64,000 nt of DNA, from the NCBI GenBank assembly GCA_965283675.1, contig CBDIPQ010000005.1, positions 91,196-155,195 on the forward strand, written 5' to 3'. A program made the position numbers and the translations under genes. The notes under the pieces are model-generated. The model made no database searches. It had not been told where the DNA came from and was given only the letters and a program-made list of their open reading frames with translations. How positions within the stretch are numbered: the stretch's first letter is position 1; the number at the start of each line of letters is the position of its first letter. The stretch comes from Caulobacteraceae bacterium (GTDB lineage Bacteria > Pseudomonadota > Alphaproteobacteria > Caulobacterales > Caulobacteraceae). Positions 6,754 through 29,615 of the stretch are shown here, piece after piece.

Positions 6754-6927
6754 CCGGAGGGCTTCGGATGACCCGCAAACGTCTCGTGACGCTCCTTTCG
6801 GCCGGCTTGGCAGCCGCAGCCTTCGCCGCCGGGGCGGCGGCGCGCCTCGCCTGGACGGGGCCGGAACCGCGTCGCCCGACCGAAGCCCCGCAACGCCCAT
6901 CGCCTTCCGCTCCTGTGGAGTTCGACC

Positions 6928-10322: not shown

Positions 10323-11444
10323 TTGGTCGAGGTCGCAGAACCCCGCAGGCCGGCCCGGATCGCGCGCGGCGGCTGGCTCGACGTTCTCCGGTTCGTCGCC
10401 GGCGCCCTGATCATCCTGTATCATTTTCGCGAGGCGGCTCCGACGCCGCTGGGCGAACTCCACCCGGTGTTTGACCGGGGGTTCCTGCTGACCAACTTCT
10501 TCATCATCGATTCCGGGTACATTCTGGCCCGGATCTATGGCGACGGCTTCGCCGCCCGCTCGCTCAACATCCTGGACTATATCCGCCAGCGCGTCCTCAG
10601 GGTCGTCCCGTCTCATCTCGTCGTGATCGGCGTACTTGCCGCAATGGTCGCCGTCGCCGCCGCGGTCGGCATTCGCCCGAGCAATCCCCAGTGGTTCGAC
10701 TGGGCGCAGCTCCCGGCGCAGGCGGCTCTGCTTCAGGCCTATGGCGTTCCGGGGGGACAGGGCTGGAACGCGCCGACCTGGACGCTCTCGGCCCTGCTCG
10801 GATGTTATCTCCTGTTGCCGTGGATATGCCGACTGATCTGGCGTAGGCGGCCCTGGCTGATCGTGGCGGGCGCCGTAGGGCTTCTGATCCTCGCGGACTG
10901 CGCCAGCCGCGCCTGGCTCGGCGATCCGATCTATCGCCTGCCTTTCAGCCACGGCTTTCTGCGAGCCCTGCCTCTGTTCCTGCTCGGTGTTGCGGCGGCG
11001 CTGTTCGGGGCGCGCGTCTATATCCCGCCGAGGCTCGCCGCGATGGCGGGGATCGTCGCCCTCGGCGTCCTCGTTTGCGCGCAGGTGATCGGGACCACCG
11101 CCTTGCTCTCGCTTCTGTTGCTGACCGTGATGATCTGGGCTGCGGGCGCGACGCCGGTCGCGAGACCCTCACGCCTGATCGAGCATCTCGGCCTGATGTC
11201 GTTCGCGATCTTCCTGACCAATGAAGTGGTCCGGATCCTCTGGTTCGGGGTCTTCGATGCGATCGGACAGGCAGGCTGGTCCTCAGATGTTCGCTGGGCG
11301 ATCTGGACTGCGGGTCTGGCGAGCGCCTTCATCGGAGCTGCAATCTTCCGGTACGCCTTCGACCGCCCTGTTCAGGCCCGTCTCAATCCGCCGCGAAGAC
11401 CACCGCAGGCGCCCGGCGTCAGCGCCGAGCGGCCCATCGCCTGA
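10323..11444 (+). CDS. Acyltransferase-3 (OafA/YrhL-like) membrane acyltransferase
   Basis: LDVLRFVAGALIILYHF, FFIIDSGYIL, RVLRVVP and WNAPTWTLS motifs; TTG start chosen, ORF-track start 9945 overlaps the upstream gene. Confidence 0.85.
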   Translation: MVEVAEPRRPARIARGGWLDVLRFVAGALIILYHFREAAPTPLGELHPVFDRGFLLTNFFIIDSGYILARIYGDGFAARSLNILDYIRQRVLRVVPSHLVVIGVLAAMVAVAAAVGIRPSNPQWFDWAQLPAQAALLQAYGVPGGQGWNAPTWTLSALLGCYLLLPWICRLIWRRRPWLIVAGAVGLLILADCASRAWLGDPIYRLPFSHGFLRALPLFLLGVAAALFGARVYIPPRLAAMAGIVALGVLVCAQVIGTTALLSLLLLTVMIWAAGATPVARPSRLIEHLGLMSFAIFLTNEVVRILWFGVFDAIGQAGWSSDVRWAIWTAGLASAFIGAAIFRYAFDRPVQARLNPPRRPPQAPGVSAERPIA

Positions 11445-11468
11445 GGGGCTCTCCCGGAAGGGTCGCCG

Positions 11469-11866
11469 TCAGGCGGGTTGGGGCGTTCTTGCGCGCTTGA
11501 GCCGGACAACATTGAGGAGGTGCGCGAGGACGAACTCAACCCGCCGACGATGGTGGCGATCGGAGCGGTCTCCACCGTCGGGCGTTCGGCCGCGCCCGCC
11601 ACAAGCGCCAGAATGGCGGCGATCGCGAGGCCCCGAAGCATCATGGGTGCGCCCACGCGAGGTGTGACGAGCGCGATCCAGGCCGCACAGGCCGCGACGC
11701 CGGCAAGCGTCCAGTGGAGCCACTCGCCGCCGGCGAGCCCCGCCAGGGGCAGAAGGCCAAGCACCCCCGCGCTCGACACACAATGGACGACGCAGAACAC
11801 GGAAAGACCGGCGCCGAACAGGTCGATTGGCCGGGAACGACCGGTGTCTGTGGGGGCGGGAGGCAT
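11469..11866 (-). CDS. MerC-domain membrane protein; frameshift at about 11533
   Basis: DLFGAGLSVFCVVHC and EWLHW motifs; one extra T joins ...VGGLS to FVLAHLLN..., the typical MerC-family C-terminal AH..N. Confidence 0.75.
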
Positions 11867-11871
11867 GTTGA

Positions 11872-11890
11872 GAATGTTATTGTGTAACGC
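11872..11890. promoter_or_regulatory. Candidate Zur/Fur-family box just upstream of the MerC-like gene
   Basis: GAATGTTAT-TGT-GTAACGC, an imperfect TGTTAT-N3-ATAACA inverted repeat in otherwise GC-rich DNA. Confidence 0.45.
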
Positions 11891-11969
11891 GCCGTTGATC
11901 CAGTGAATTGTGGTCGCGGACGCGCCTCGGCGATGATGATTTCGTGACGACCCGCGGATTGGTTTGCGG

Positions 11970-11983
11970 TACTATGGGGAGTA
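11970..11983. promoter_or_regulatory. Candidate RcnR/CsoR-family operator upstream of the MFS gene
   Basis: TACT-ATGGGG-AGTA, about 20 bp before the ATG at 12005; resembles the site at 23824. Confidence 0.6.
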
Positions 11984-12004
11984 TCTTTCCGATCGGGTCC
12001 GCAG

Positions 12005-13339
12005 ATGTTTTCTCCGCTGTCCAATCCCGCCTACCGCAGGCTCTTCATCGCCCAGGTGTCGGCTCTGCTCGGTACGGGCATGGCGACCGTCGCCCTCGGC
12101 CTGCTTGCCCATGATCTGGCCGGCGCCAACGCCGGAGAAATTCTCGGCGCAGCGCTCTCGATCAAGATGGTGGCCTATATCGCCGTCGCGCCGTTCGCGA
12201 GCGCCATCGCCGCGCGCTTGCCGCGCAAGACCCTCCTCGTGTCGCTGGACGTCGTCAGGGCGGGCGTCGCCATCACCCTGCCGTTCGTGGGCGCCGCCTG
12301 GCAAGTCTATGCCCTGATGGCCGTGCTCTACACGGCCTCCGCCGCCTTCACCCCGGCGTTCCAGGCCATGATCCCGGACCTTCTGGAGGACGAGGGGGAG
12401 TATACCAAGGCGCTCTCGCTCTCCCGCCTCGCGGCGGACCTCGAAAGCGTGGCCAGTCCGGTGGTCGCCGCCGTTCTGCTGGCCTTCATCAGCTACAACA
12501 ATCTGTTCGTGGGGACAGCTCTCGGCTTCGCGCTCTCGGCGGTCTTTGTCGTCCGGGCGATCCTGCCCCGGTCCGCCGGCGCAGCGCCCTTGCCCTTCAT
12601 ACGCCGGCTGACGGCTGGCGCCCGGCTGTTCGCCCTGACCCCGAGGCTGAGAGGCCTTCTGGCGGTCAGCCTGGCGACCGCCGCAGGCGGCGCGATGGTG
12701 TTCGTGAACACCGTCGTGCTTGTGCAGAGCAGCTTTGGCCTCTCTCAACAGGCGACGGCCTGGGCGCTCGCGGCCTTCGGCGCGGGGTCGATGACCGCCG
12801 CCCTGCTACTGCCGCGCGTCCTTCAAAGGATCCCCGACCGCTCCGCCATGATCGCGGGCGCTGGCGTCATGACGGGCGTGCTTCTGCTCGGCGCCTTTGT
12901 GGCGACGTCCTACCCCATCCTTTTGGGGCTCTGGATCGTCATGGGCTTCGGCTATTCGCTGACCATCACGCCGGCCGGTCGGGCGCTTCGACGGTCCTCG
13001 ACCTCGCAAGACCGCCCCTCGCTGTTCGCCGCCCAGTTCGCCCTGTCCCACGCCTGCTGGCTGATCGCCTATCCGGTCGCGGGGCTCGTCTCCGCCGAGG
13101 CGGATCCCCGCGCGGCCTTCCTTGTGCTCGCGGGCCTCTGCGCGGTGGGTGTGGTTCTCGCGCTCGTGGTCTGGCCCCGCTACGACCCGGCCAATCTCGC
13201 GCACTCGCACTCGGACCTGGACGCCGATGACCCCCACCTGTCCGAAGGCGAGCGTCCGGACCGGCAGTCCAGTTGGCACGCCCATCCGGTCGTGATCGAC
13301 GAGGCGCATCCGCGCTGGCCGCGACCGGACGAGAAATGA
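12005..13339 (+). CDS. MFS transporter (NreB-like, metal-island type) with His/Asp-rich C-terminal tail
   Basis: 12-TM MFS pattern, RLPRKTLLVSLDVVRA loop motif, tail HSHSDLDADDPHL...HAHPVVIDEAHPRWP. Confidence 0.85.
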   Translation: MFSPLSNPAYRRLFIAQVSALLGTGMATVALGLLAHDLAGANAGEILGAALSIKMVAYIAVAPFASAIAARLPRKTLLVSLDVVRAGVAITLPFVGAAWQVYALMAVLYTASAAFTPAFQAMIPDLLEDEGEYTKALSLSRLAADLESVASPVVAAVLLAFISYNNLFVGTALGFALSAVFVVRAILPRSAGAAPLPFIRRLTAGARLFALTPRLRGLLAVSLATAAGGAMVFVNTVVLVQSSFGLSQQATAWALAAFGAGSMTAALLLPRVLQRIPDRSAMIAGAGVMTGVLLLGAFVATSYPILLGLWIVMGFGYSLTITPAGRALRRSSTSQDRPSLFAAQFALSHACWLIAYPVAGLVSAEADPRAAFLVLAGLCAVGVVLALVVWPRYDPANLAHSHSDLDADDPHLSEGERPDRQSSWHAHPVVIDEAHPRWPRPDEK

Positions 13340-13377
13340 TGGCGGGGCGCGTCAGGGGGTTCCAGCGCCCCGCCATC
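13338..13377. terminator. Hairpin between convergent genes (possible bidirectional terminator)
   Basis: Perfect 13-bp stem GATGGCGGGGCGC / GCGCCCCGCCATC with 14-nt loop; no clear U-tract. Confidence 0.55.
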
Positions 13378-13414
13378 CGGTCGGCCGACTGGCGGCGGCC
13401 GACCCACAAGCGGG

Positions 13415-14083
13415 TCAGACCACCCGCTTGATCTCGGTGTAGGCGCCTTCGGTTTCGACCGTGATCGTCACGGTCTCTCCGGTCCGGTTGCGCCAGAACC
13501 AGCCATGGCTTCCGTCGAAGGCCGCCGTCAGCTCACCGGACTGCTGCAGATCGGTGCCCTTTCCGTAGCCGTGATAGCGGACGCCGGGGCGGTCAGCGTG
13601 GGTGTCGAAATTCACCGCACCTCCGCTGCTCCTCCAGGTGAAGCGGACCTTGGCGCCTTCGGCCATGTCCATCTTCAGCTCTGCGCCCTGGTTGGGGGCC
13701 AGTTCGATCACAGTCTCGTCCGAGCGGATGCCGGCTGCGGCGGCTTCAGCCGTGACCGGCCGGGCTGACGGCGCCACCGGACCGGTGGCTGCGGCCGGTG
13801 CTGCGGCAGGCGTCGGCGTGGAGGCGACGCCCGAGGTCTGGCCGGCGGCGGCGGCGTCCGCCGCAGCGTCAGCCTCGGCTTCCAGCGCGAGCTGGCGTTT
13901 CAGCTGGCCCATTTCCGTCAGGCCGAAGACCGAGCCGATACGCGTGGGATCGACGCCATATTCGGCTGGAAGGACCACAGTGACGAGGATCGCGCCGGCG
14001 ACGACGGCGGCGATGCCGGTGGATTTCAGCAACTCCTGCGTGGTGGGCAGTTCGGAGCGGGCGGGGCGGTTTGCGTTAAACAT
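13415..14083 (-). CDS. Conserved hypothetical membrane-anchored protein with periplasmic beta-rich domain
   Basis: TM plus LPAEYGVDPT motif, Ala/Pro linker, FDTHAD...YHGY and HGWFWRNR motifs; follows HupE/UreJ gene. Confidence 0.8.
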   Translation of the reverse strand: MFNANRPARSELPTTQELLKSTGIAAVVAGAILVTVVLPAEYGVDPTRIGSVFGLTEMGQLKRQLALEAEADAAADAAAAGQTSGVASTPTPAAAPAAATGPVAPSARPVTAEAAAAGIRSDETVIELAPNQGAELKMDMAEGAKVRFTWRSSGGAVNFDTHADRPGVRYHGYGKGTDLQQSGELTAAFDGSHGWFWRNRTGETVTITVETEGAYTEIKRVV

Positions 14084-14098
14084 GGAGGGGGGCTCCGA

Positions 14099-14830
14099 TC
14101 ACATGACGAAGAAGCCGACGAGCTGGTAGCCCGTCAGAATGAAGCCGAGGCACATGACCACGGCGTTGGTCAGGAAGGCGTGGTTCCAGAAGCTGTTCGA
14201 GCGGCGCCAGAAGCCCATCAGGATAAGGATGCCGCCGAGCGCCAGCAGCTGGCCGGCCTCGACGCCGATGTTGAAGGCGATCAGGTTGCCGATCAGGCCG
14301 TCCGGCGACATCTGGAAGTCCTGCAGCTTGGTCGCGAGACCGAAGCCGTGGAACAGACCGAAGATCAGGGTCGCCGCCTTGGTGGAGGGCTGGAAGCCGA
14401 ACCAGCGCTGGAAGGCGCCCATGTTGTCCAGGGATTTGTAGACGACGGACAGGCCGATGATGGCGTCCACGATGTAGCTGGAGACGCTGATGTCGGTCAG
14501 CACGCCCAGCAGCAGGGTTGAGGAGTGGCCGATGGCGAACAGCGTCACATAGATGCTGATGTCCTTCATCCTGTAGAGGAAGAAGATCACGCCGAAGAGG
14601 AACAGCAGGTGGTCGTATCCGGTGACCATGTGCTTGGCGCCCAGATAGACGAAAGGCCAGAACAGGAAGCCGGTGGTCTCCTGGATGTAGCCCTTGTCGC
14701 CCTCGGCGACGCCGTGGGCGAGGGCCTGACTGAGGGCGCCGTCCAGAAGCATGAAACTGAGGATCAGCAGAAGCGCCGTCCAGGGCGATCGGAGCCACGA
14801 CCAGGAGTCGCGGCGCAATGCAGAAGTCAT
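14099..14830 (-). CDS. HupE/UreJ-family membrane protein
   Basis: AHGV after signal-like segment; LGAKHMVTGYDHLLFL, FAIGHS, GLFHGFG and AFNIGVEAGQ motifs. Confidence 0.9.
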   Translation of the reverse strand: MTSALRRDSWSWLRSPWTALLLILSFMLLDGALSQALAHGVAEGDKGYIQETTGFLFWPFVYLGAKHMVTGYDHLLFLFGVIFFLYRMKDISIYVTLFAIGHSSTLLLGVLTDISVSSYIVDAIIGLSVVYKSLDNMGAFQRWFGFQPSTKAATLIFGLFHGFGLATKLQDFQMSPDGLIGNLIAFNIGVEAGQLLALGGILILMGFWRRSNSFWNHAFLTNAVVMCLGFILTGYQLVGFFVM

Positions 14831-15995
14831 GATTGACCTTTCGCGGAGTTGGGGGAGGGGGTGAGGAAAAGGCTGCGCACCAGGGTGCGGGCGGGCCGCT
14901 CCCAGAAGGCGTGCAGTGCGAAGGCGCTGGCCAAAGTCACGACCAGCAACAGAGCCGCTTCGGAAGCGGACATCCGGTAGGTGCTGTCGATGCCGCCCAG
15001 CATCGCCATCCCGTTCTTCCAGATGATCAGAAGCGGGAGATGGACGAGGTAGAGGGCATAGGAGGCTTCGCCCGCCTCCAGCAGCAGCGGATGGTTGAAG
15101 ACGCTGTCATCCTCGGCGCGGTCCCAGAGGGCCAGCGCGAGGACGACGACGCCGGAGGCCGCCACGATCAGGCGCTCGTCGGCGCTGATCGCCATCAGGC
15201 AAATCAGGGCGAAAAGCGATCCGATGGCGGCGAGCGTCGCCGTCCGGCGACCGCAACGGATGCGGCAACCGAGCTGGTAAAGGCCGATCCCGAACAGGAA
15301 TTCGGGAATGATCCTCAGCACGCCGAGCACGAGCTCGGCATGGGTGAGCTGGTCCTTGAAGATCCAGCGGTAGAGGCCGTCGATCACCAGGAACAGGCCC
15401 ACCGACAGACCGATCACCATCCAGGGGCGGCGGCCCGACCTGAGCCCGATGAAGGCGAACACAGGGAAGGCCAGATAGGCGGCCCATTCCGCGGACAGGG
15501 ACCAGGACGGGCCGTTCCACTCATTGGGAACGGTAGCCGGGAACCAGGCGTGGGTGAGGGCGAGGGCGGACGCGAACCCCGGCAGCGAGTAACTGTCGGC
15601 CGCGAACGGCTGACCCAGGGCGATAGCCGCCAGGACGATGAACGCCATCAGCACCATCATGGCGAGATGAGCCGGATAGATCCGGGCCAGCCGCGCGATG
15701 AGGAAGCGCTTGTGGTTGTAGGTCCCGTTCCGGATCTGACGCCCGTAGACGTGCGCCAGGATGAAACCCGACAGAATGAAGAAGAAATCGACCGCGAGGC
15801 GTGCGCGCTCGATCAGGGCGAGCCCCGTCCCGCCCTCGGGCGTCATGTTCAGCTGGTAGTGGAAGAGCACGACGCCGAGGGCGAGCCAGAACCGAATGCC
15901 GGTCAGGGCCGGCAAACGGTCCGGGAAGCCCGGCGCCGACGCGTTGGGGACCGCCTCGGCGCCGCCCCCGCTCTTCCTGCGAAGAGCGGAGTTCA

Positions 15996-15996
<1 letters not shown>
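14827..15996 (-). CDS. Acyltransferase-3 (OafA/YrhL-like) membrane acyltransferase
   Basis: LTGIRFWLALGVVLFHY, AVDFFFILSGFIL, RLARIYP, WNGPSWSLSAEW and GEASYALYLVH motifs; overlaps czcA stop (TGATG) and hupE start (ATGA). Confidence 0.9.
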
Positions 15997-19195
<3,199 letters not shown>

Positions 19196-20461
19196 CTAGT
19201 GGTCGTGGCTCGCGCCGGACTTGTCGATGTCCGCGCGAATGAGGAAGGCGCCGTCCACGACATAGGTCGTGTTTGGATCGATACCGCCCAGGACTTCGGT
19301 CCACTCGTCCGTCCGACGCCCAAGCTCGAGCATGCGGACCTCATAGGTGTTACCCACCTTGGCGTAGACGACGGTGAAGTCCCGGAAGGGCTGAAGCGCA
19401 CGGGTGCGGACCGCGAGCGGCACTTCCCCGGTTCCGACCTGGACCGTCCCGTCGACGCCCAGGCCCGGGCGCCAGACGCCGCCTTGGGCCGGCAGGGCGA
19501 CGTGGGCGACGAGCGTCTGACTGAGCACGTCATCAGCCGGGAGGATCGCCTCGATGGTGCCGGTGGTGGTGTTCTCGCCGGCGGTGCTGCGCACCTGGAC
19601 GCGCTGGCCGACCCGCACCCGTTCGGCGTCACGCGGATAGAGGAAGAACTCCGCATGCAGACGGGTCGGATCGCCGATCATCAGCATGGGCGTCCCGTTG
19701 CCCGTGATGGCGCCCGGATTGATGTTCTTGGCGGTGATGACGCCCGAGATCGGGGCGGTGACCGAATAGGTCTGCAGGCTTTCGCTCGACTCCACCCGGG
19801 CGACGACCTGGCCGCGGGACACCCGTTGACCGAGCTGGACGTTCAGCGAGACCACACGGCCGGGGTAGCGGGCGTGGACCTCGGCTTGGGCTTCCGGAGC
19901 CAGCTCCACCCGGCCGGTAAGGGGCAGGGCTTCCGCCAGCGTGGCCGGCCCGACCTGTTCGGTCGTGACCCCGCCCGCCCGTGCGGCCTCCGCCGTGATC
20001 TGCGTACGGCCCTCGTAGGACTGGTAGGTCCACCTCGAGGTCTTTCCGCCCCGCACCGCGTTCACCGCGACGTCGAACGAGTGGGGCTCGGTGACGACGC
20101 CGGGGCTGGCGAGGTAGGCGCCCTCGGGGGTGAAGGTGAACCGATCAACCTGTGGCCCCAGACGCGTCAGCGCCATGGTGAGCTGAACCTGCCGGGGATC
20201 GAGCGGCTTGTCGTTCAGATACGGATAGATCCGGAAGAGGGGCTCAGGGCCTTCTTCGTAGATGGTGACTTCCAGCGAGAAGTCGCCGTCGCGGAGGAGG
20301 CGGCCATTGTTCGGGCCACGCTCGTAGTCCCCGGCGGCCGCCGCTTCGGCGCCCTCGGCCTTCTCGGCGCGCTCACCGCCGCCGCCGCAGGCGGCGAGCA
20401 CCAGAGCAAGGCTGGTCAACGCCGCGCCGGAGGCGAGGCGCAGTGCATGTGTACGGGTCAT
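19196..20461 (-). CDS. czcB: Periplasmic adaptor (MFP) of second heavy-metal RND system
   Basis: Lipoprotein-like LAAC, GPNNGRLL, APISGVI motifs, ends KSGASHDH. Confidence 0.9.
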   Translation of the reverse strand: MTRTHALRLASGAALTSLALVLAACGGGGERAEKAEGAEAAAAGDYERGPNNGRLLRDGDFSLEVTIYEEGPEPLFRIYPYLNDKPLDPRQVQLTMALTRLGPQVDRFTFTPEGAYLASPGVVTEPHSFDVAVNAVRGGKTSRWTYQSYEGRTQITAEAARAGGVTTEQVGPATLAEALPLTGRVELAPEAQAEVHARYPGRVVSLNVQLGQRVSRGQVVARVESSESLQTYSVTAPISGVITAKNINPGAITGNGTPMLMIGDPTRLHAEFFLYPRDAERVRVGQRVQVRSTAGENTTTGTIEAILPADDVLSQTLVAHVALPAQGGVWRPGLGVDGTVQVGTGEVPLAVRTRALQPFRDFTVVYAKVGNTYEVRMLELGRRTDEWTEVLGGIDPNTTYVVDGAFLIRADIDKSGASHDH

Positions 20462-21777
20462 GGTTGGGTCTCCAGGCCGAGCAGGTCGGCATGCGCGCCT
20501 GTCAGACGGTCCAGTCTGGCGCGGTCGGTGTGGAAGGCTTGCAGGATGGACACGCGCCTCGCCCGGGCCTGCAGCAAGGCTGTCTGCGCGGACATCACGT
20601 CGTTGTAGGTGAAGCCGCCGCGCCCGAAGCCCTCGCGGACAAGGGTGACGGCACGCTCCGCCTGAGGCAGGGTCTCCTCGGCGATGCGGCGCGCTTCGCT
20701 GGCCTTGGCGGCCAGCTGCACCTGAAGCCTGAGGATTTCGCGCTCGCGCTCGATCTCGAAAGCGCGGCGATCGGCCTGGGCGGCTACGCCCTCGGCCTGG
20801 GCGCGGGCGATTGCGCCTTCATTGCGGTCGTAGCGTTGAAGCGGCATCGATCCGCCGAACACCAGGGCAACTTCGTTGTCCCAGATGTGGCGGACGCCGA
20901 GGCTCACCGTCGGGTCGGGCACGGCGCGCGCCTGTTCGACCCGCACCTGGGCGTCGGCGATCAGACGGCGGGCATCGAAAGCCGCGAGATCGATCTGCGC
21001 CACCGGACCGGCTTCCCGGCGAGAGGCGCTCGTGTCCTCGAAGGCATCAGCCCCGAGGGTGAACTCTGATCTGCCGAACCAGAATTTGGCGAGGTTGACC
21101 CGCGCCATACGCGCGCCGACCTCGGCCTGGTCGAAGTCGATCTGCGCCTGGGCGAGCTCGGCCTCCGCCCGGGCCCCTGCGAACAGGGGATCTCGTGCGG
21201 CGTTGACCCGTCGGGAGACTTCACTCTGGAAGGCCTCGGCCAGATTGAGCCGCTCCCTGGCGATTTCGAGCAAGGCCTCCGAAGCGAGCGCTTCGGCCCA
21301 CGCCGTCTGGACCAGCTCGAGCCGGTCGAGCTGCGCGGCCCTGGCGTCGGCGAGAAGCAGATCTCCCTCGGCCCGGGCGAGCGCCGTGCGGGCCGGACGA
21401 TCGCCGCCCCGTTCCAGACGTTGCTCGTACGTCAGCGTGGTCTCGGTTCGCCCGAGAATATCGCCGCCGCCGAGCGTCGGCAGGTTCTCGACCATCAGTC
21501 CGACGTTCGGATTGGGTCGGACATCGGCCTGCCGCACGCCGGCTCCAGCGGCGCGACGACGAGCTTCGACACCGGCGAGCGCCGGGTCTGACGCGGCGGA
21601 AAGACTGAGGGCTTCGCGCAAGCTGAGTTGCGGGTAGCCGTTCACGTCGGCGGGGACCGGCGCCGCTTGGGCGAACACCGGGGCAGGGGCGAGCGACGCC
21701 CCAAGGGCGAGCGCGAGCGCAGACACGGCTGCGGCGCGCACCCGCCATCCGGCAGCGCCGGATGCAGGTAGTTTCAA
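20458..21777 (-). CDS. czcC: TolC-family outer membrane factor of second heavy-metal RND system
   Basis: Signal peptide ending VFAQ, VRQADVRPNP, MPLQRYDRNEG motifs; TTG start approximate. Confidence 0.88.
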   Translation of the reverse strand: MKLPASGAAGWRVRAAAVSALALALGASLAPAPVFAQAAPVPADVNGYPQLSLREALSLSAASDPALAGVEARRRAAGAGVRQADVRPNPNVGLMVENLPTLGGGDILGRTETTLTYEQRLERGGDRPARTALARAEGDLLLADARAAQLDRLELVQTAWAEALASEALLEIARERLNLAEAFQSEVSRRVNAARDPLFAGARAEAELAQAQIDFDQAEVGARMARVNLAKFWFGRSEFTLGADAFEDTSASRREAGPVAQIDLAAFDARRLIADAQVRVEQARAVPDPTVSLGVRHIWDNEVALVFGGSMPLQRYDRNEGAIARAQAEGVAAQADRRAFEIEREREILRLQVQLAAKASEARRIAEETLPQAERAVTLVREGFGRGGFTYNDVMSAQTALLQARARRVSILQAFHTDRARLDRLTGAHADLLGLETQP

Positions 21778-21838
21778 GGAATTTCTCCAACAGGACGCGC
21801 ACGGCCCGGAGGCCGCGCAGGATCAGCTTTTCAGGCGA

Positions 21839-22312
21839 TCAGGCGTTCTGTTTAGGAGGGTCGAGCGGGCTTTCCGGACGCGTTCCCGCCAAAGGCGGAG
21901 TCCGGGCCGGGTTGAGCGCGGGCGCAAGTCCGCTGGAGGGGGAGTTCGGCTGAGGCAGGCCTGCGAGCGCGATGTGCACGTCACCGCCGCCGCCATGGTG
22001 ATGGTGCGGCAGCACCGGCATTTCGCTTTGGTCGGCGGTGTCGATCGCCGTGTCTGCGGCGGCAGAGGCTTCAGCGTCGACCTCGTGGGCGTGATCGTGC
22101 CCGTCGTCGTGATGATCATGGTCAGCCGCGGAATCGCTGAAAGCGACGCCGGGGAACTGGAGAGCATGTTCTATTCGATGTTGACCGTCACGTACCGCAA
22201 AGCCTTGCAGCGTGACCATAAGGGTCACGGCCAAGCCGATGCAGATCTGGCGGACAAGTCGCGACAGAGAGTACCCCGTACTCCCCGGACTATCTCGACA
22301 CCCCTGATTCAA
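21839..22312 (-). CDS. His-rich small protein upstream of czcC (CzcI/DUF2946-like architecture); start uncertain
   Basis: Hydrophobic N-terminal segment, DHDHHDDGHDHAH and HHHH tracts, Pro-rich end PLDPPK. Confidence 0.65.
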   Translation of the reverse strand: MNQGCRDSPGSTGYSLSRLVRQICIGLAVTLMVTLQGFAVRDGQHRIEHALQFPGVAFSDSAADHDHHDDGHDHAHEVDAEASAAADTAIDTADQSEMPVLPHHHHGGGGDVHIALAGLPQPNSPSSGLAPALNPARTPPLAGTRPESPLDPPKQNA

Positions 22313-22334
22313 GCAACATCAAAAGTGTCGCAGT

Positions 22335-23279
22335 TCAGGCGGGGAGAGGCTCGGAGGGTTCGATTTCGATAGTGATATGCTTGAGCTCGTGCACCGGGAC
22401 CAGCCGCGCTCGAAGCGCCTCCAAGGTCGCGCTGGAGGTCGCGACACTGATGATGGCGGCGTGAGCGTCCGGCCCAACCCGCCAGATGTGCAGATCGCGG
22501 ATACGGGCATCGCCTGGCGTCTCGATCGCCTCGCGGGTTTCATCGGCGACGTGGGTGTCGGTTCGGTCCAGCAGGACGGCAGCCGTATCGCGCAGGAGAC
22601 CCCATGACCATTTCGCGATTACCGCTGCGCCGACCAGGCCCATGATCGGGTCCAGCCATGTCCATCCGAGATAGTGACCTGACAGGAGCGCGACGATCGC
22701 AAGGACCGATGTCAGGGCATCGGCTAGGACATGGAGATACGCGGAACGCAGATTGTTGTCGCCGCCGTGCCCGTGGTCGTGGTGGCCATGATCGTGATGA
22801 TCATGCTGGTGGCTGTGGTGATGCCCTCCCGAGAGCAGAAGAGCGCTCACGACATTCACGACAAGGCCGATGACGGCGACAATCGCCGCTTCGCCGAACA
22901 AGACCGTAGTCGGCTCGAACAGACGTCGGATGGATTCCACGCCGATGCCAATGGCGAAAAGGCCCAGAACGAGCGCGGATGCAAACCCTGCCAGATCGCC
23001 GACCTTGCCGGTGCCGAAGCTGTATCGGGGGTCGTTCGCGTGACGGCGTGCGTAGCTGTAGGCTGCGGCCGCGACCCCAAGGGCTCCGGCGTGGGTGAGC
23101 ATATGTATGCCGTCCGCCAGCAAGGCCATTGATCCCGTCAGCACGCCGGCGACGATCTCTCCGACCATCATCACTGCGGTCAGGACGACCACGATCAATG
23201 TGCGGCGGGCGTTCTCGTCATGATTGGCGGCCAGAAAGACATGATCATGGGCCGGTGAAGCGGCAGGCTGGATGGTCAT
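22335..23279 (-). CDS. dmeF: CDF-family Co/Ni efflux transporter DmeF
   Basis: HDHVFL...ENARRT, GSMALLADGIHM, His-rich loop, NLRSAYLHVLADALTS. Confidence 0.9.
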   Translation of the reverse strand: MTIQPAASPAHDHVFLAANHDENARRTLIVVVLTAVMMVGEIVAGVLTGSMALLADGIHMLTHAGALGVAAAAYSYARRHANDPRYSFGTGKVGDLAGFASALVLGLFAIGIGVESIRRLFEPTTVLFGEAAIVAVIGLVVNVVSALLLSGGHHHSHQHDHHDHGHHDHGHGGDNNLRSAYLHVLADALTSVLAIVALLSGHYLGWTWLDPIMGLVGAAVIAKWSWGLLRDTAAVLLDRTDTHVADETREAIETPGDARIRDLHIWRVGPDAHAAIISVATSSATLEALRARLVPVHELKHITIEIEPSEPLPA

Positions 23280-23548
23280 TTATAGCGTCCGATAATGGAT
23301 ATGAGCTCGTCGGCGCCCTTGCGACGCGCGGCTTCATCAAGATGAGGCGCAGCGACATGGTGCTCGAGATGCTGAAGGATCAGCGCTTCGACCAGGCCGC
23401 CAAGAGCGCCGCGCACGGCGGCGGCCTGCTGGAGGACGGCGATGCAATCGACATCATCATTGATGGCGCGCTCGAGAGCGCTGACCTGCCCATTGATGCG
23501 GCGGACCCTGGCCATAAGTTTGGGCTTGTCAGCGGCGATATGGGCCAT
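23276..23548 (-). CDS. rcnR: RcnR/FrmR/CsoR-family metal-sensing repressor (DmeR-like)
   Basis: MAH...KLMARVRRINGQV, DCIAVLQQAAAVRGAL, HLEHH; ATGA-coupled to dmeF. Confidence 0.88.
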   Translation of the reverse strand: MAHIAADKPKLMARVRRINGQVSALERAINDDVDCIAVLQQAAAVRGALGGLVEALILQHLEHHVAAPHLDEAARRKGADELISIIGRYK

Positions 23549-23583
23549 GGTGGAATCCTTCTGAGACGACGTGTTGGGTCTCA

Positions 23584-23784
23584 TTAGTCACTCGCCCCGG
23601 CCTTCGCACCCAAGGCGGTCATTCGCCGGGGGAGCTCCCGCTCGATGGCCTTGCGGCGGAAGGGCGACAGCTTGCACCATTGAGCCACTTCCGGACGCGT
23701 TCGGCCGCACCCCACGCACCAGCCGGTCGCGGAATTGAAGATGCAGATGTCTATGCAGGGTGTCTTCACCGATCGGCCCGTCAC
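23584..23784 (-). CDS. DUF1289-family small Cys-rich protein
   Basis: TPCIDIC...GWCVGCGRTRPEVAQW motif; start GTG 23784 (TTG 23799 possible). Confidence 0.85.
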   Translation of the reverse strand: MTGRSVKTPCIDICIFNSATGWCVGCGRTRPEVAQWCKLSPFRRKAIERELPRRMTALGAKAGASD

Positions 23785-23823
23785 CGAGCCGTGGCGCAAG
23801 CCGTCACGAACCGGTTGGGCTGA

Positions 23824-23842
23824 TATACTCCCTACCAGTATA
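23824..23842. promoter_or_regulatory. Candidate RcnR-type operator heading the DUF1289-rcnR-dmeF-czcCBA operon
   Basis: Palindrome TATACT-N7-AGTATA; minus strand reads TACT-GGTAGGG-AGTA, close to the known RcnR site TACT-G6-N-AGTA. Confidence 0.7.
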
Positions 23843-23932
23843 ACATCAAGGTTTGCGTGAGTGATGTCGCTGTGCCGCCATCGCTGGCGGCGTCGTGCCT
23901 TCAGAGGGGGAAAGGCTGGGTTTCGAGCCGCA

Positions 23933-25291
23933 TCAATCCTCGTCGCCCGCGACCGCCAGGACGGGCTGAACCCATCCGTCGTCTCCGAAGGCCGCGAGAA
24001 CGCCCTCGAAGTGGTTCAGGTGGCGGACCTCGTTCAGCCCGTGAACGAAACGGTTTCGGGCGTCGATCGACGGTTGGCGCCCGGCGTTTCGAAGAAGACT
24101 GAGTAGCAACCCGCTTGTCGCCGCGGCGGCATAATTCTGACCGTTGCCGACTATGGCGTCGAGCACCTGATCGAGCTCGGCCTGCGTCAGAGAACCGGTG
24201 TAGGGAGCGATGAAGTCACTGAAGTTGGCTTCCGAGCCCCTGAAGCTGCCCGAGCCCGCATAGCGCGCGACAGCGGCCGGCCACAGGTCAGCAAGCGGAG
24301 TGGCAGCGATCGTGCGGGCGAAGGTCTCGCGGTCCAGTCGCGGTATCGCGGCAAGGAGCGGCCCGGAACCGCTCGAATGTGATCCCCATCATGATCCGGA
24401 CATCGGCGACATTTGCGGGGTCGAGGTTGTTGACGGTCTCCTGCAGGGCGGTCTGCGTCGCCTCCTGGATCAGCGGCCAGAAGTTCGGGAAGGCGGCGAT
24501 GAAGGCGATGGCCCGCGGCCGATCAAGGGCGCCAGATTGTCGAGGAGCTGCACAATGGAAGGTGCGAGTTCGGGCCACGCCGCAGGGGTCCGCTCGCGGA
24601 CCGCCACGAGGGCCGAAACGATTTTGCCGCGCACCCCGTCGAGATGAGGGGGAATGCCTTTGAGCAACGACTTGGCGAGAACAGTGCCGAAGTTGCGGAT
24701 GTTCTGGGACCGGACGCGGGCGAGGTAGCGCTGCTCGACGTAGTCGAGAATCCTGGCGTGATCGCTCGGGAATCCGGGCGACTGAACATCGACATCGAAG
24801 ACCTCGAAGATCGCTCGGCCCTGAAGAGGTTCCTGGGCCAGCACGAGATCGACGGCGTTGACCAGATGCATTCGCACCAGTTCTGGCGTGGGCTCGAACA
24901 GCAGGGCTTCGGCCGAGAAGGCAGGATGGGCGCACAGATGGCGGTCCTCGCGCAGTCTCTCCAGCTGTCGCCGGGCGATCTGGCTGATAGCCTGGGTGTT
25001 GTCCGCGGCGTCCTCGATGATCCGGCCCTCCAGCTGGAGGAGCTGGCGAATGTCACTGATCGCGGTCGCATTATCCCAGGATTGAAGGAAGGTCGTCGCG
25101 GCGGCATCGCCCATCGCGCCTAGCTCCCGGTACTTTGCGATCAGATCATAGGCGAGCGCGACCCATGCCGCCGTCAGCGATGCGCGAAGGGCAGCTTTGT
25201 AGGCCTTCACCGCGTCGAGGAAGTAGATGCGTGACTGGGCGTTGCGCACCTTGGTCAGCAGGATGTCGAGATCTACGAAGCTGGAGTCCAC
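23933..25291 (-). CDS. Hypothetical protein of about 450 aa with HEPN-like Rx4H motif; two apparent frameshifts (about 24527 and 24360)
   Basis: Three consecutive protein-like segments (ORFs 24470-25357, 24288-24935, and the frame ending 23933) join into one helical protein; EDRHLCAHP motif. Confidence 0.65.
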
Positions 25292-25367
25292 AGGGCGTAC
25301 CGAGGAAATGAGTGGGGGGGGCGAAGGTCGGGCAGGCGACGTGGCCCGTCCATCCAACCGTGAGGGT

Positions 25368-26429
25368 CTACTCGTAGGGGAGCTCTCCGAAGAGGCCTAT
25401 CATGAGATCTCCCTTCAGCTCGCGGAAAGGAATCTCGACAAAATGGTCGGGGTGTCTGGGCTTGGCCCGGCCATCCCCAGGACCGTTCTTTGTGTGGCCG
25501 CGAACCTGCTCGCCGCTTTCCTTGACATAGGGAAGGACAACGAGCCTACCGTGGTTGGTCGAGAGGATCGTGCCCTCGCGCCATAGCGTCGACCCATCCT
25601 CACCCTTGTCGCTGGTGGTCGCCTTGACCGTCCAGCCGAGTTGACCGTCCGGCTCGTACCAGAACACGATCCCATTGCTGACCAGAACATGCTCGCCACG
25701 GGCCAGAGCCTCGGCGAGGAGGCGTTGAACGCTGGCGAGCTGAAGAAGCTGATTGGCCCGCGGCAGCAGTTCGGCACGGATTTTGGCCTTCACCTGACCC
25801 CAGTGCTGATCGTGGTGAAACTTGAAGCCGTTGGCGATCCGGGCGCGCATGGCTTTCTCCGCCGATTTCTCGCCGGCGGGATAGGGTTTGCTCCAGACGT
25901 CGTCAGCGTTGCGATACAGAACGACCTGCCGTCCGCGGCCATCGAGAAGAGCCATCCAGAGATAGGGGTAGGTTTGTAGCTCTTGCGCCAACGCTTCCCG
26001 ATAGGGCTCGGCCTCAGTGTGCAGCTTGATTTGATCGATCGGGATCCGGGGCGTGTCGGCGTGGCGTCGGATCGCCTCGGAAAGCATCAGGGCTTCCTCA
26101 TCCGCCAGACGTTGCCGCGACTGAAGCGCCTTGCGGACCTTCAGGGTGAGAGAGGTCTTCTCTGTTGCGTCCATCTGCCTCGCCGCGAGCGCCGCCGCCA
26201 GCGAGGGATTCAAAGCCTCGGCTGCGGATACTGCGGCCTTCCGATCCGGATGGACGTCCATTCTGACCCATCCCTCCTCGGACGGGATTCGTCGGTCTCG
26301 CCAGCGAACGCCGCCGTCCTCGGTCTCGACCAGCTCCACCATGAACCAGCGCTCATGCAACGGGCGATAGCTCGGCCATATCGCGAGGATAGGATCATGA
26401 TCCCTCCGACTGTCTCCCCACTTGATCAT
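25368..26429 (-). CDS. Hypothetical protein (353 aa)
   Basis: GGAGG RBS before ATG 26429; protein-like composition; C-terminal PYVKESGEQVRGHTKNGP motif. Confidence 0.75.
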   Translation of the reverse strand: MIKWGDSRRDHDPILAIWPSYRPLHERWFMVELVETEDGGVRWRDRRIPSEEGWVRMDVHPDRKAAVSAAEALNPSLAAALAARQMDATEKTSLTLKVRKALQSRQRLADEEALMLSEAIRRHADTPRIPIDQIKLHTEAEPYREALAQELQTYPYLWMALLDGRGRQVVLYRNADDVWSKPYPAGEKSAEKAMRARIANGFKFHHDQHWGQVKAKIRAELLPRANQLLQLASVQRLLAEALARGEHVLVSNGIVFWYEPDGQLGWTVKATTSDKGEDGSTLWREGTILSTNHGRLVVLPYVKESGEQVRGHTKNGPGDGRAKPRHPDHFVEIPFRELKGDLMIGLFGELPYE

Positions 26430-26596
26430 GCATGCCTCCCGACTCGGAGCTGATCTGATCGACAGGCGCATATTGACGCAATGCCTGATTGAAGCCTGGC
26501 TGTGCGCAACAAAACTTGAGATGGCGCCGCGTGGCACTGGCATGGGGCGAGGGGACTTCCCGAACTCAACATCCCCAATCGATGGAGCGTGAGATC

Positions 26597-27073
26597 ATGG
26601 TGAAGGTTGTCGGGTTTCCTGCCCCCGTAGATATCTCCGGCCTGAAGCCCGGGTCAGCGTTCCAGGTCGGTGATACAGTTCCGCCGCTCTATGGGATCAC
26701 GGTGAAGGCGGGTGACCTGGTGACGGCCATCCTTCTGGGTCAGGTGAAGGGCCAGGCGGCTTCCCCTGGCTATCTGCAGAATCAGCACCTCCCCGGCGAG
26801 TGCTACGCCGTCGACGCCGAGCTCGTGATCGGCAGAACCGCGAAGACGGAGCGTCGCGAAGCGCTGACGCATGGCGCGCTCGTCTTCGACGGCGAGAACA
26901 AGCCGTTCCTCGTCATCGAGCAAGCCGATCCCTTCCCACGCCTGTACCTGTCGATGGAGACAGGCGAGGCAAAGACGGACGGACCAGCGGGCATGCTCCA
27001 AATCTACGGCAACTGGGTGCTGAGGCTTGAGGGGGAAGGGAAGACGCTGACCGAGCTCACACTCAATGGCTAG
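26597..27073 (+). CDS. Hypothetical protein (158 aa, beta-rich)
   Basis: ATG 26597 after GGAG; stop TAG formed from the TA target plus first IS base. Confidence 0.7.
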   Translation: MVKVVGFPAPVDISGLKPGSAFQVGDTVPPLYGITVKAGDLVTAILLGQVKGQAASPGYLQNQHLPGECYAVDAELVIGRTAKTERREALTHGALVFDGENKPFLVIEQADPFPRLYLSMETGEAKTDGPAGMLQIYGNWVLRLEGEGKTLTELTLNG

Positions 27074-27900
27074 GCTCAGGACCCATTGATGTGAGGCGTT
27101 CGGTCTGATTCAGGCTCCTGAGGAGTCTGGATATGAGCGACCTGTATTGGCTGACGGACGAGCAGATGGCTCGGCTGGAGCCCTTCTTCCCAAAGAGCCA
27201 CGGCAAGCCGCGCGTTGACGACCGCCGGGTGTTGAGCGGGATCATCTTCGTCAACCGCAACGGCCTCCGCTGGCGAGATGCGCCGGCGGCCTACGGGCCG
27301 CACAAGACCCTCTACAACCGCTGGAAGCGATGGAGTGAGGCTGGCGTCTTCATCCGGATGATGGAGGGCCTCTCCGGGGCTCAGACCGAACGCCGCACGG
27401 TCATGATCGACGCGACCTATCTCAAGGCGCACCGCACGGCTTCGAGCCTGCGGGTAAAAAAGGGGGTCTCGGGCGACTGATCGGACGCACGAAAGGCGGC
27501 ATGAACACCAAGCTGCACGCCGTGACCGATGCGAACGGGCGGCCCATCAGCCTCTTCATGACAGCGGGTCAGGTCAGCGACTACATCGGCGCTGCCGCTC
27601 TCCTGGACAGCCTGCCACGCGCCCAGTGGTTGTTGGGCGACAGGGGCTACGACGCCGACTGGTTCCGGGACGCCTTGCAGGCCAAGGGGATCACGCCGTG
27701 CATCCCAGGCCGCAAAACCCGCACCGAACCCATCCGCTACGACAAGCGACGCTACAAGCGGCGAAACCGGATCGAAATCATGTTTGGACGCCTGAAAGAC
27801 TGGCGCCGGGTCGCCACCCGCTACGATCGCTGTCCGACGGTCTTCCTGTCCGCCATCGCCCTCGCCGCGACCGTCCTGTTCTGGCTATAAGTCCTGAGCC
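27073..27900 (+). mobile_element. IS5-family (IS427-group) insertion sequence, 828 bp
   Basis: Perfect 10-bp TIRs GGCTCAGGAC / GTCCTGAGCC, TA direct repeats at 27071-27072 and 27901-27902, split DDE transposase. Confidence 0.95.
27133..27890 (+). CDS. IS5-family transposase, orfA 27133-27480 plus orfB joined by programmed -1 frameshift
   Basis: GKPRVDDRRVLSGI, WRDAP..YGPHKT, IDATYLKAHR, DRGYDAD, RYDRC motifs; slippery A AAA AAG at 27456-27462. Confidence 0.93.
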
Positions 27901-28509
27901 TAAGAAGGTCTACACGCCCTCCGAGGATCTACTGGACGGCCTCAAACAGGATGTCCTCTACCTGTTGCTCACGATCCTGGCGCATCGCGAGAAGCAACGC
28001 CTCCCGAACCTGGGAAAGATGTCTGGGAAGACCTCGTGCTTGAGCTCGCCCTGTTGGAAAGCGGGACGAGGGATATCATCGCGCGACTTACAGCGCTGGA
28101 CGACGACGGTTCCGGGTCACGGTCGTTCCCGAATGCTCTCGCTGCCATGAATCGCGAGGGACTAGCGGCCAGGAAGGCAGAAGAACTGAAGGCCCACGTC
28201 AAGGCGTACCGGGCGGCGATCAACGATCTCAAGGTCAACCATCGCAACAGCTACATCAGCCATGTGCAGGAGTTCGCCGAAGTTCTCCCGCGCGTCCTTG
28301 ATAAGCCCGTGCGTTTCGAGATGGCAGCGAGCCTCTCCGTCAATGTTCTCGACGCCTTGATGGGGCGACAGGTGGAGTATCGGTTCCGGGTCGGCTCTCA
28401 GGAACCCGAGCTTGATCTGCGCGCGCGTCTTTCCGGTCCGTAGCCTAACCACGAAGTCTTGGGTCCTGACGTACAGTGCGATGCCAAGCCTTCCTGCGGA
28501 GGCTGCGAC

Positions 28510-28529
28510 CTTACACAAATGCTTACACA
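28510..28529. repeat. Direct repeat CTTACACA x2 near the att site (candidate integrase arm-type sites)
   Basis: CTTACACA at 28510-28517 and 28522-28529, about 60 bp inside the tRNA-derived core. Confidence 0.45.
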
Positions 28530-28587
28530 GTCGGCTGGCTTGTGGTAGATTCTCACGAAGTATCAGTGGTTTGATGCTGGCGTGTGT

Positions 28588-28641
28588 GACTTAAAATCCG
28601 GGTCCTCTGGAGTGTCGGTTCGAGTCCGACCGCCCGCACCA
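28588..28641 (+). tRNA. 3' half only of tRNA-Leu(TAA), not an intact gene; probable att core
   Basis: Anticodon loop CT-TAA-AA, long variable arm, T-arm GTCGG-TTCGAGT-CCGAC, acceptor strand CGCCCGC-A-CCA; no complementary GCGGGCG or D-arm upstream. Confidence 0.88.
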
Positions 28642-28649
28642 GCTCCCGG

Positions 28650-29615
28650 TCAGCCGACCAGCGCTTGCCGGTCGCGTTCCAGAAAGGCGACGATGTCGGC
28701 CGGCGTCGCTCTCGGCGTGCGGGTGTGCGGATAGGCGTGCGCGGTGCGCGGCTTCCGGTCGAACCACAGTTCATCGACCACCTCCGACGGACGGGTCGCG
28801 GCCAGCCAGTCGATGGTGTCGGCGCCCTCGTCGTCGTTGCGCAGGATCGGAGCCAGGATCTTGCGGAATTTGGGCAGGGAGGTCTTCACCCCCGCCGTGT
28901 CGGCCCAGCCCGGATGGACCGCGTAGGTCCTGGCCCCAATGTCGGCGAAGGCCGCGCGCCAGTGCTCGGTCAGCGCCACCTGGGCCCGCTTGTGGGCCGC
29001 GTAGGCGGCGAAGCCGTTGAACTTCTCTTCCGGGATGTTCAGCATCGATTTGGTCAGCGGCAGATTGTAGAGGCCGCCCGAGACCACATTGATGATCGCC
29101 GCTTCCGAGGCCAACAGGCCCTCGGCGTGCATCTGTTCCGTCAGGATGTAGTGACCCAGCAGATTGGTCGCGTAGGAGGTCTCCACCCCCTCGGCCGTCG
29201 CCTGGTAGGACCGCATCAGCAGGCCGACATTGTTGACCAGAACGTCGAACTTCAGGGCGGCGATCTCCGGCCGGCGGGCCAGGTCGGACACCGCCCGCAT
29301 GGATGACAGGTCGCAGACGACCGGAACGATCCGTCCGGACGCCCCCGCCGCCGCGGCCTGAAGCGCATCCAGCGCGGCGACATTGCGCCCGACCGCGTAC
29401 ACCGTGGCCCCTTTGCGCACGGCGCGCAGCGCCGCCGCCCGCCCCAGCCCGCCGGTCGCGCCGGTGACCAGCCAGGTCTGTCCGGAATAGTCCGCGCGAA
29501 CCGGCTTGAACGGCAGGCCGCGGGCGATGTAGCCGACGCGGGTGAATGACGGCGCGAAGCGTGCGTAGAAATTCACAGACTTCATAAGGGCTTGCAGGAA
29601 GGGCAGCTCAGCCAT
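28650..29615 (-). CDS. SDR-family oxidoreductase (DHRS12-like)
   Basis: TGATGGLG, NNVG, YAAHK, VHPGWADT motifs. Confidence 0.9.
   Translation of the reverse strand: MAELPFLQALMKSVNFYARFAPSFTRVGYIARGLPFKPVRADYSGQTWLVTGATGGLGRAAALRAVRKGATVYAVGRNVAALDALQAAAAGASGRIVPVVCDLSSMRAVSDLARRPEIAALKFDVLVNNVGLLMRSYQATAEGVETSYATNLLGHYILTEQMHAEGLLASEAAIINVVSGGLYNLPLTKSMLNIPEEKFNGFAAYAAHKRAQVALTEHWRAAFADIGARTYAVHPGWADTAGVKTSLPKFRKILAPILRNDDEGADTIDWLAATRPSEVVDELWFDRKPRTAHAYPHTRTPRATPADIVAFLERDRQALVG

Follow-up and report, generated by a model that had tools for sequence, protein, structure and literature searches.

Insertion sequences (ISs) are known to inactivate or re-wire toxin and defense genes and to create hybrid promoters or open reading frames (ORFs). 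The locus described here lies in a 64,000-nucleotide (nt) stretch of a Caulobacteraceae genome (GenBank assembly GCA_965283675.1, contig CBDIPQ010000005.1, positions 91,196 to 155,195; hereafter, the window) and resembles such cases in that an IS5-family element sits at the 5' end of a costly gene and is polymorphic in the population. The affected gene encodes a putative RNase that we file as a divergent branch of the HEPN_AbiU2 family; in its native state, it overlaps the end of an upstream gene for a 158-amino acid (aa) ORFan protein. Unlike the known insertions, the IS in this locus appears to donate to the downstream gene an in-frame start codon together with an ATGA coupling to its own transposase, an arrangement for which our searches found no earlier description with this IS. 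The locus is best classed as an IS5-family insertion polymorphism of a defense island that hit a new HEPN_AbiU2-like clade, ordinary though neat, and not a proven switch.

The proteins of the HEPN_AbiU2 family (PF18734; Anantharaman et al. 2013, PMC3710099) are small and all-alpha, as the product of the interrupted gene is predicted to be, about 180 aa in length, with an R-x5-H motif as the only invariant feature, and they occur in defense-island contexts, represented here by a homologue of the DARNA nuclease next to the gene pair and, in one related locus (L012), by SIR2-HerA and FRG-domain genes. The clade in the window differs in scoring below the Pfam gathering cut-off and in having a 158-aa ORFan as the partner, as opposed to the Sel1-repeat or restriction-modification (R-M) genes listed for AbiU2. 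The same survey lists a HEPN family 'in operon with AbiU2' (PMC3710099). The defense protein PD-T7-3 (Vassallo et al. 2022, PMC9519451) is now known as DARNA, a HEPN tRNA anticodon nuclease that is activated by single-stranded DNA and carries an R117x4H122 motif (bioRxiv 10.64898/2026.02.22.705581); its homologue in our locus is of similar length and has the Rx4H motif at residues 118-123 versus 117-122. However, this homologue is the neighbor and not the IS-hit gene, it follows a conserved gene for a 353-aa protein whereas PD-T7-3 works as a single gene, and its copy in the window carries indels that are probably errors. In the HEPN-MNT (HepT-MntA) type II/VII toxin-antitoxin systems, as in the native pair described here, a small HEPN gene is located immediately downstream of an overlapping small partner, but the 158-aa protein contains no MNT signature or other known antitoxin domain and is absent beside HEPN homologues with 52-54% identity. 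As for the IS itself, it is an ordinary element that matches the IS5-family members with a -1 frameshift (transpos_IS5_3; ISKpn12-like relatives, ~78% DNA identity) in size (~0.83 kb), perfect 10-nt inverted repeats, TA duplication in CTAR, DUF4096 and DDE ORFs, and an A6G slippery site; what sets it apart is the outward-facing ATG on the transposase stop.

The IS is intact, 828 bp long and present in a single copy in the window, and its sharp boundaries place the insertion at the TA of ATGGCTAA, the stop/start overlap of the two genes. In-silico removal of the IS and of one TA yields ...AAT GGC TAA, the end of the upstream gene, overlapping ATG GCT AAG AAG GTC TAC, the beginning of the downstream one; the same empty site had been proposed in an earlier interpretation of the window made from its letters alone (hereafter, the sequence-only reading). 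That reading was also right in that the insertion leaves the 158-aa protein unchanged: the stop codon, formerly TAA, is now a TAG composed of the target TA and the first base of the IS. The terminal inverted repeats, GGCTCAGGAC and GTCCTGAGCC, reach 12 nt with the flanking TA included. The conceptual fusion of the two transposase ORFs (252 aa) matches the NCBIfam model transpos_IS5_3 (NF033580) with an E-value of 2.6e-83 over profile positions 3-258 of 258, and the element, with its full-length DDE transposase, terminal inverted repeats and TA duplication, belongs to the IS5 family. The layout of the reading frames fits programmed -1 frameshifting, which would join orfA and orfB: a conceptual shift at AAAAAAG links ...RVKK to GGLGRLIGRTKGGMNTKLH....

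TA flanks every other copy of this IS, in most cases within the CTA-R context, and the same ends and TA are found at 5 other insertion sites. The window, with its 68% GC content, contains only 42 CTAR sites in 64 kb, both strands counted; because the C-TAA stop codon is one of the few targets available, the position of the IS needs no special explanation. The locus illustrates how, in nature, an IS that targets TA comes to lie on a stop codon in a genome with 68% GC, and how two overlapping genes can be uncoupled by an IS that at the same time provides a new start codon. Inside the element, an 18-nt inverted repeat (27091-27108 and 27381-27398, 94% complementary) brings together the 5' leader and part of orfA, perhaps as a regulatory structure or perhaps by chance.

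IS-free alleles, which the sequence-only reading suggested looking for in relatives, were identified when the conceptually repaired downstream protein was used as the query. Its homologues are full-length proteins of 178-191 aa (the closest, P0001, with 98% identity over 100% of the query), and those with 75-98% identity begin with M[A/P/S]KK, in agreement with the MAKKVY start proposed for the native gene and not with a start farther downstream that would leave the gene intact. In four loci (L001, L002, L003 and L008), the 158-aa gene overlaps a 181/182-aa gene by 8 nt, ATGNCTAA. In six more (L031-L036), the IS-free pair is bounded by the SDR gene on one side and the 353-aa and 454-aa genes on the other, just as in the window, and the right flank of L031 is 99.9% identical to that of the window; these six are true empty-site alleles because they share the chromosomal context of the window. 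IS-free and IS-bearing alleles coexist, in different samples, at more than 99% identity.

In every other copy of the IS, the right end reads ...CTATGAGTCCTGAGCC, that is, ...CTG GCT ATG AGT CCT GAG CC, followed by TA. The ATG, within the last 14 nt of the element, overlaps the transposase stop (ATGA), points outward and, at this junction, is in frame with the HEPN ORF. The insertion allele accordingly reads ATG AGT CCT GAG CCT AAG AAG GTC TAC across the junction, encoding MSPEPKKVY, where MSPEP replaces MA. In the window, this codon is ATA, and the orfB stop (27888-90) is TAA, versus TGA in every other copy. Seven of the 10 other copies examined lie at five unrelated sites (L016/L024, L018, L019, L022 and L023) and all have G, so that G at 27889 is the ancestral state. 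The same IS occupies the same junction in L009, L015 and L020 and, among the contigs retrieved with the hybrid protein, in L037-L041; the window IS differs from each of the first three by a single base, A versus G at 27889. The possibility that the G in L009 was a rescue mutation that created the start was considered and rejected given that all other IS copies show G; it is the A in the window that is derived or erroneous.

The hybrid HEPN protein (P0143) is intact, 185 aa in length, and is encoded on at least 17 contigs (JGI, ENA, NCBI and Logan) with at least three right-flank contexts; in L015, L020, L037, L038, L040 and L041, the hybrid gene was called with a 4-nt overlap with orfB. Further contigs (P0145 and P0146) break inside the IS, and the product of the NCBI pipeline on the L009 contig is shorter, 159 aa. 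The claim that the downstream gene was beheaded therefore holds in part: the native start and the coupling are lost, but the IS brings an in-frame ATG and the hybrid ORF is intact elsewhere; with that ORF open, the silencing of the gene is not established. By reading the sequence, we found no GGAG/AGGA-type Shine-Dalgarno (SD) sequence upstream of either the native or the IS-borne ATG, so both would depend on coupling. No plus-strand intrinsic terminator was found in 26300-28700, and a sigma-70 promoter scan, not tuned to Caulobacterales promoters, returned nothing. In L009 (5253-8000), a Caulobacteraceae metagenome-assembled genome, the same IS has the HEPN gene on the right, whereas the 158-aa gene on the left is replaced by an S_4TM effector gene truncated at its 5' end (PF18159, E-value 7e-80, profile positions 27-290); either two copies of the IS recombined or the assembly is chimeric at the repeat.

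Table 1. Coordinates of the features of the interrupted gene pair and its neighbors (window numbering)
Feature	Position	Strand	Remarks
PD-T7-3/DARNA-type HEPN RNase homologue	23936-25291	-	454 aa in relatives
Conserved 353-aa neighbor	25371-26429	-	transcribed divergently from the 158-aa gene; precedes the DARNA homologue
158-aa ORFan gene	26597-27073	+	upstream of the HEPN gene; stop now TAG (27071-73)
Duplicated TA target	27071-27072 (left copy); 27901-27902 (right copy)		
IS5-family insertion sequence, 828 bp	27073-27900	+	intact; left inverted repeat 27073-27082, right inverted repeat 27891-27900
IS orfA, DUF4096, 115 aa	27133-27480	+	Pfam match
Slippery heptamer AAAAAAG (A6G) in orfA	27456-27462	+	
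IS orfB frame, DDE domain	27462-27890; ATG-delimited ORF 27501-27890	+	DDE_Tnp_1 match
IS-borne outward start codon	27887-27889	+	in frame with the HEPN ORF; ATA in the window, ATG in 10/10 other copies examined
Window-only change, ATG to ATA	27889		first G of the GANTC site 27889-27893
HEPN_AbiU2-like ORF, codons 3-43 of the native protein (KKVYTPSED...GKMS)	27902-28024	+	
Window-only 1-nt deletion	28024/28025		inner C of CTCGGG (CYCGRG), ATGTCT-C-GGGAAG; frameshifts HEPN codon 44
HEPN_AbiU2-like ORF, codons 44-182, shifted frame	28025-28443	+	stop 28441-43; carries Rx5H
Rx5H motif RNSYISH, residues 117-123	28243-28263	+	

Two lesions in the window had escaped the sequence-only reading, namely, the IS-borne start, ATA here and ATG elsewhere, and the 1-nt deletion in the HEPN gene. 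Because of the latter, the proposal that precise excision of the IS would restore the gene fails for the sequence as given. We compared 22 kb of the window (12338-34545) with 99.85%-identical references (L025-L031, plus L015 for the IS) and scored as window-only those differences in which the references are unanimous and the window departs from them. There are about 20 window-only events, 13 of which involve an indel, with 12 deletions and 1 insertion. Eight of the 20 map to GANTC, whose 31 sites make up 0.7% of the bases (binomial probability 7e-13), and six of these eight are G to A changes at the first G, including those at 27889 and 27000. Six events are in or next to GGCGCC, among them all lesions of the DARNA homologue, which is interrupted in the window by the loss of 2 nt at 24360, 1 nt at 24526 and 3 nt at 25191. 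Three more involve CYCGRG, where the events at 23562 (intergenic, CTCGAG) and 28024 both lose the inner C of CTCGRG. Jointly, GANTC, GGCGCC and CYCGRG account for 14 of the 20 events versus 4% expected (3e-15). Window-only frameshifts are also found in czcA (16171) and in an acyl-CoA synthetase gene (33286 and 33597-601); other examples of window-only positions are 16984, 17881, 22265, 22282, 23736 and 26563.

GANTC is the site of methylation by CcrM in Alphaproteobacteria. In nanopore assemblies, GANTC in Alphaproteobacteria and short palindromes of the R-M type have been reported as places where errors accumulate (PMC12710330, PMC12392509). Given that the window-only changes follow methylation motifs and are biased toward deletions, it appears quite likely that both the ATA and the frameshift at 28024/25 are methylation-linked artefacts of the long-read consensus, and if they are, the allele actually present in this genome is probably the widespread hybrid. 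Frameshifts of the HEPN gene and of the DARNA homologue, initially considered as evidence of decay, were downgraded after this motif analysis. Because the frameshifts in czcA, the acyl-CoA synthetase gene and the DARNA homologue follow the motifs, pseudogene calls from this genome need accurate reads. The lesson for data quality is that the apparent extra decay in the window tracks methylation motifs. The one feature of the locus that merits an experiment is the donated, ATGA-coupled start.

The native HEPN_AbiU2-like protein consists of 182 aa. A profile search of 1.84 billion representative sequences retrieved about 120 HEPN relatives of 160-210 aa, 74 of which were aligned. In this alignment, H123 is the sole invariant column and R117 is the sole other column conserved at 90% or above (consensus RNxxIAH), so the Rx5H motif pointed out by the sequence-only reading, RNSYISH in the window, coincides with the only conserved positions of the family. 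The Pfam HEPN_AbiU2 model (PF18734) scores 15.4 bits against the window fragment and 14.7 bits against P0001 (E-values 0.013 and 0.022; cut-off 26.8) and matches 53 of the 74 family members (E-value of at most 0.01), with the best E-value of 6.4e-10. By transitive homology and the catalytic motif, the downstream gene is filed as a divergent HEPN_AbiU2 branch, for which we infer RNase activity. A profile search of the PDB with this family gave no match at E-values up to 10. The AlphaFold2 model is all-alpha, with a mean predicted local distance difference test score (pLDDT) of 73.6 and a predicted template modeling score of 0.72; the motif region, residues 120-136, is below 50. Translation from an internal start at the conserved M42 (28019-21) was considered as well; it would remove helix 1, and the deletion in the window directly follows this codon. 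In L012 (2366-8886), a 52%-identical HEPN_AbiU2-like gene is preceded by unrelated 353-aa and FRG-domain genes and followed by genes for SIR2 and HerA (DUF87).

The 158-aa protein has close homologues only, with 75-94% identity, and matches nothing in Pfam, NCBIfam, PADLOC or the PDB (the latter by profile search up to an E-value of 10). Its AlphaFold2 model is beta-rich with a pLDDT of 42.8, too poor for a structure search, and Q133 (A at 27000) is a window-only residue within a GANTC site. Beside the HEPN homologues with 52-54% identity (P0009 and P0010), no 158-aa partner adjoins: P0010 is encoded after an FRG-domain gene and before SIR2-HerA genes, and upstream of the gene for P0009, no partner lies on the same strand. 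With no known domain and the partner absent next to these homologues, an antitoxin role of the 158-aa protein is unsupported.

Among near-identical islands, the HEPN gene occurs in three or more forms: intact (P0140, 35 contigs; P0139, 42 contigs), nonsense (Q18*, CAG to TAG in an IS-free gene, in L025 and L028) and the IS-hybrid. In L029, on a 2.1-Mb contig, an IS3-family (rve) element splits the 353-aa gene (5578-7904). Such diversity is consistent with a dispensable or costly module, although it would not by itself demonstrate a reversible switch. The allele series (intact, Q18* and IS-hybrid) can be used to test the cost and function of a HEPN_AbiU2-like gene that is located beside a DARNA homologue.

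The explanation that we favor, with moderate confidence, is a start swap. A TA-targeting IS5-family element inserted into the ATGGCTAA overlap of the 158-aa ORFan gene and the 182-aa HEPN_AbiU2-family gene, depriving the latter of its own ATG and of the termination-reinitiation coupling to the 158-aa gene while the upstream protein remained untouched. With the IS-borne ATG in frame, the start was swapped, not simply lost, and the insertion allele encodes the 185-aa hybrid. The hybrid would still be co-transcribed, given the shared direction of the IS and the gene pair and the negative result of the terminator search, and might be translated by the rare ribosomes that finish the frameshifted transposase or through leaky, SD-less initiation. 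The predicted HEPN RNase would, in this case, be re-wired and probably strongly turned down but not deleted; the two extra changes in the window would be consensus errors at methylated motifs, the true allele being the common hybrid. Several points weigh against this explanation. The expression of the hybrid is deduced from the arrangement of the genes; all IS-bearing HEPN ORFs are identical, so that an open ORF may only mean that the insertion is recent; and an ATG in frame by coincidence has a prior of 1 in 3. The interpretation of the ATA and the deletion as probable errors comes from comparison of consensus assemblies, and the segment at 22-28 kb has a higher density of window-only differences than the one at 12-22 kb, which could reflect real relaxed selection on the module. 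On the side of the family assignment, the HEPN protein of the window falls below the Pfam HEPN_AbiU2 cut-off, and a Foldseek search of the PDB with its model retrieved generic helical bundles at E-values above 0.5 and no HEPN entry.

A possible, if rather doubtful, alternative is that the IS-borne ATG is unused, so that the insertion produced a simple null allele that hitch-hikes on a successful island, its ORF being open because the insertion is recent. The lack of an SD before this ATG, the need for a -1 frameshift before any ribosome can arrive at the orfB stop, the shorter 159-aa product called in L009 and the identity of all IS-bearing HEPN copies, which leaves no time signal for purifying selection, are all compatible with a null; against it, the allele is intact across at least 17 contigs with at least three flank contexts, the native gene has no SD either and relies on coupling, and the ATGA overlap is a classic reinitiation arrangement. 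Still less probable, in our assessment, is that the sequence is correct as given, such that after the insertion the IS-borne start was lost (ATG to ATA) and codon 44 was frameshifted, with the DARNA homologue decaying too. Costly HEPN RNases would then be progressively and irreversibly inactivated while the non-toxic neighbors are kept. Both lesions are indeed present in the window sequence, the damage affects two HEPN-type genes with the 158-aa and 353-aa genes open, the ATG to ATA change is silent for the transposase (TGA to TAA), relatives carry independent real lesions (Q18* in L025 and L028; the IS3 element in L029), and the higher density of window-only changes at 22-28 kb is in line with decay. 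However, the same motif signature is found elsewhere, including czcA, the acyl-CoA synthetase gene and intergenic DNA, and with indels making up 13 of about 20 events, 12 of the 13 being deletions, the pattern is atypical of real divergence at 99.85% identity. The reversible off-switch envisaged by the sequence-only reading, where the IS silences a putative toxic RNase, spares the partner and restores ATGGCTAA upon precise excision, is in our view barely credible. The TA duplication implies that precise excision would regenerate the native junction, and IS-free and IS-bearing alleles do coexist at more than 99% identity, with the IS-free state found in the window's own context; such coexistence is nevertheless explained by a single insertion followed by spread, given that at least 17 contigs, which differ in their flanks, share one and the same IS and junction. 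Moreover, the in-frame ATG supplied by the IS leaves the 'off' state not established, the window as sequenced has a second lesion beyond repair by excision, the consensus assemblies show no excision or mixed alleles, and precise excision of IS5-family elements is a rare, transposase-independent event.

A far-reaching extension of the start swap, which we consider very unlikely, is that the ATGA junction is functional, with the predicted HEPN RNase translationally slaved to the transposase and made only when orfAB is completed. Were this the case, the dosage of the toxin would be linked to transposase expression, making the hybrid an addiction or stabilization device for the IS-bearing island, or else a brake that penalizes cells with high transposase synthesis; such a role would explain the intact persistence of a single insertion allele on many contigs and in several contexts.

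The gene pair belongs to a conserved four-gene block in a Brevundimonas/Caulobacterales island. The 454-aa neighbor is a PD-T7-3/DARNA homologue, with its Rx4H represented by RHLCAH; the PADLOC PD-T7-3 model (PDLC04108) matches the L008 and L003 orthologues with E-values of 7.8e-35 and 6.4e-34, respectively. The 353-aa protein has no match in Pfam, NCBIfam or PADLOC. Between the 353-aa gene and the start of the DARNA homologue, a plus-strand poly-G tract (~25306-25313) differs in length among assemblies, with 8 residues in the window, 9 in L025, L026, L028 and L030, and 10 in L027 and L015; at 9, an upstream ATG is in frame, and the DARNA homologue is called as 475 aa instead of 454 aa. The tract could be phase-variable or could represent homopolymer noise. 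A megablast search of 23800-28650 against the PLSDB plasmids produced only IS5-family matches with 77-82% identity and no annotated copy of the gene pair.

On the right side, a tRNA-like 3' half (T-arm, acceptor and CCA; 28576-28641) follows CTTAAAA, which was read as a Leu-UAA-type anticodon loop. The Rfam tRNA match at 28576-28638 is sub-threshold (22.6 bits), and ARAGORN predicted no tRNA gene, either here or elsewhere in the window, nor in six related loci. From about 28598 onward, L001, L009, L015 and L025-L031 have divergent right flanks, with different tRNA-like 3' halves in L009 and L015, which suggests that an integrative island ends at a tRNA gene near this position. On the left side, a czc-type metal-efflux cluster (~11441-23985) encompasses genes for OEP, CzcB, CzcA, a CzcD-like cation-efflux protein and an RcnR/FrmR-like repressor. 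This region is absent from L033-L035, where the four-gene block abuts an acyltransferase gene, and constitutes a 12.5-kb insertion/deletion polymorphism. Between L032-L036 and the window (23986-27072), the four-gene block shows 90.4% identity compared to 95-99% for the flanking chromosomal DNA, which would mean either elevated divergence or allelic exchange at the defense locus.

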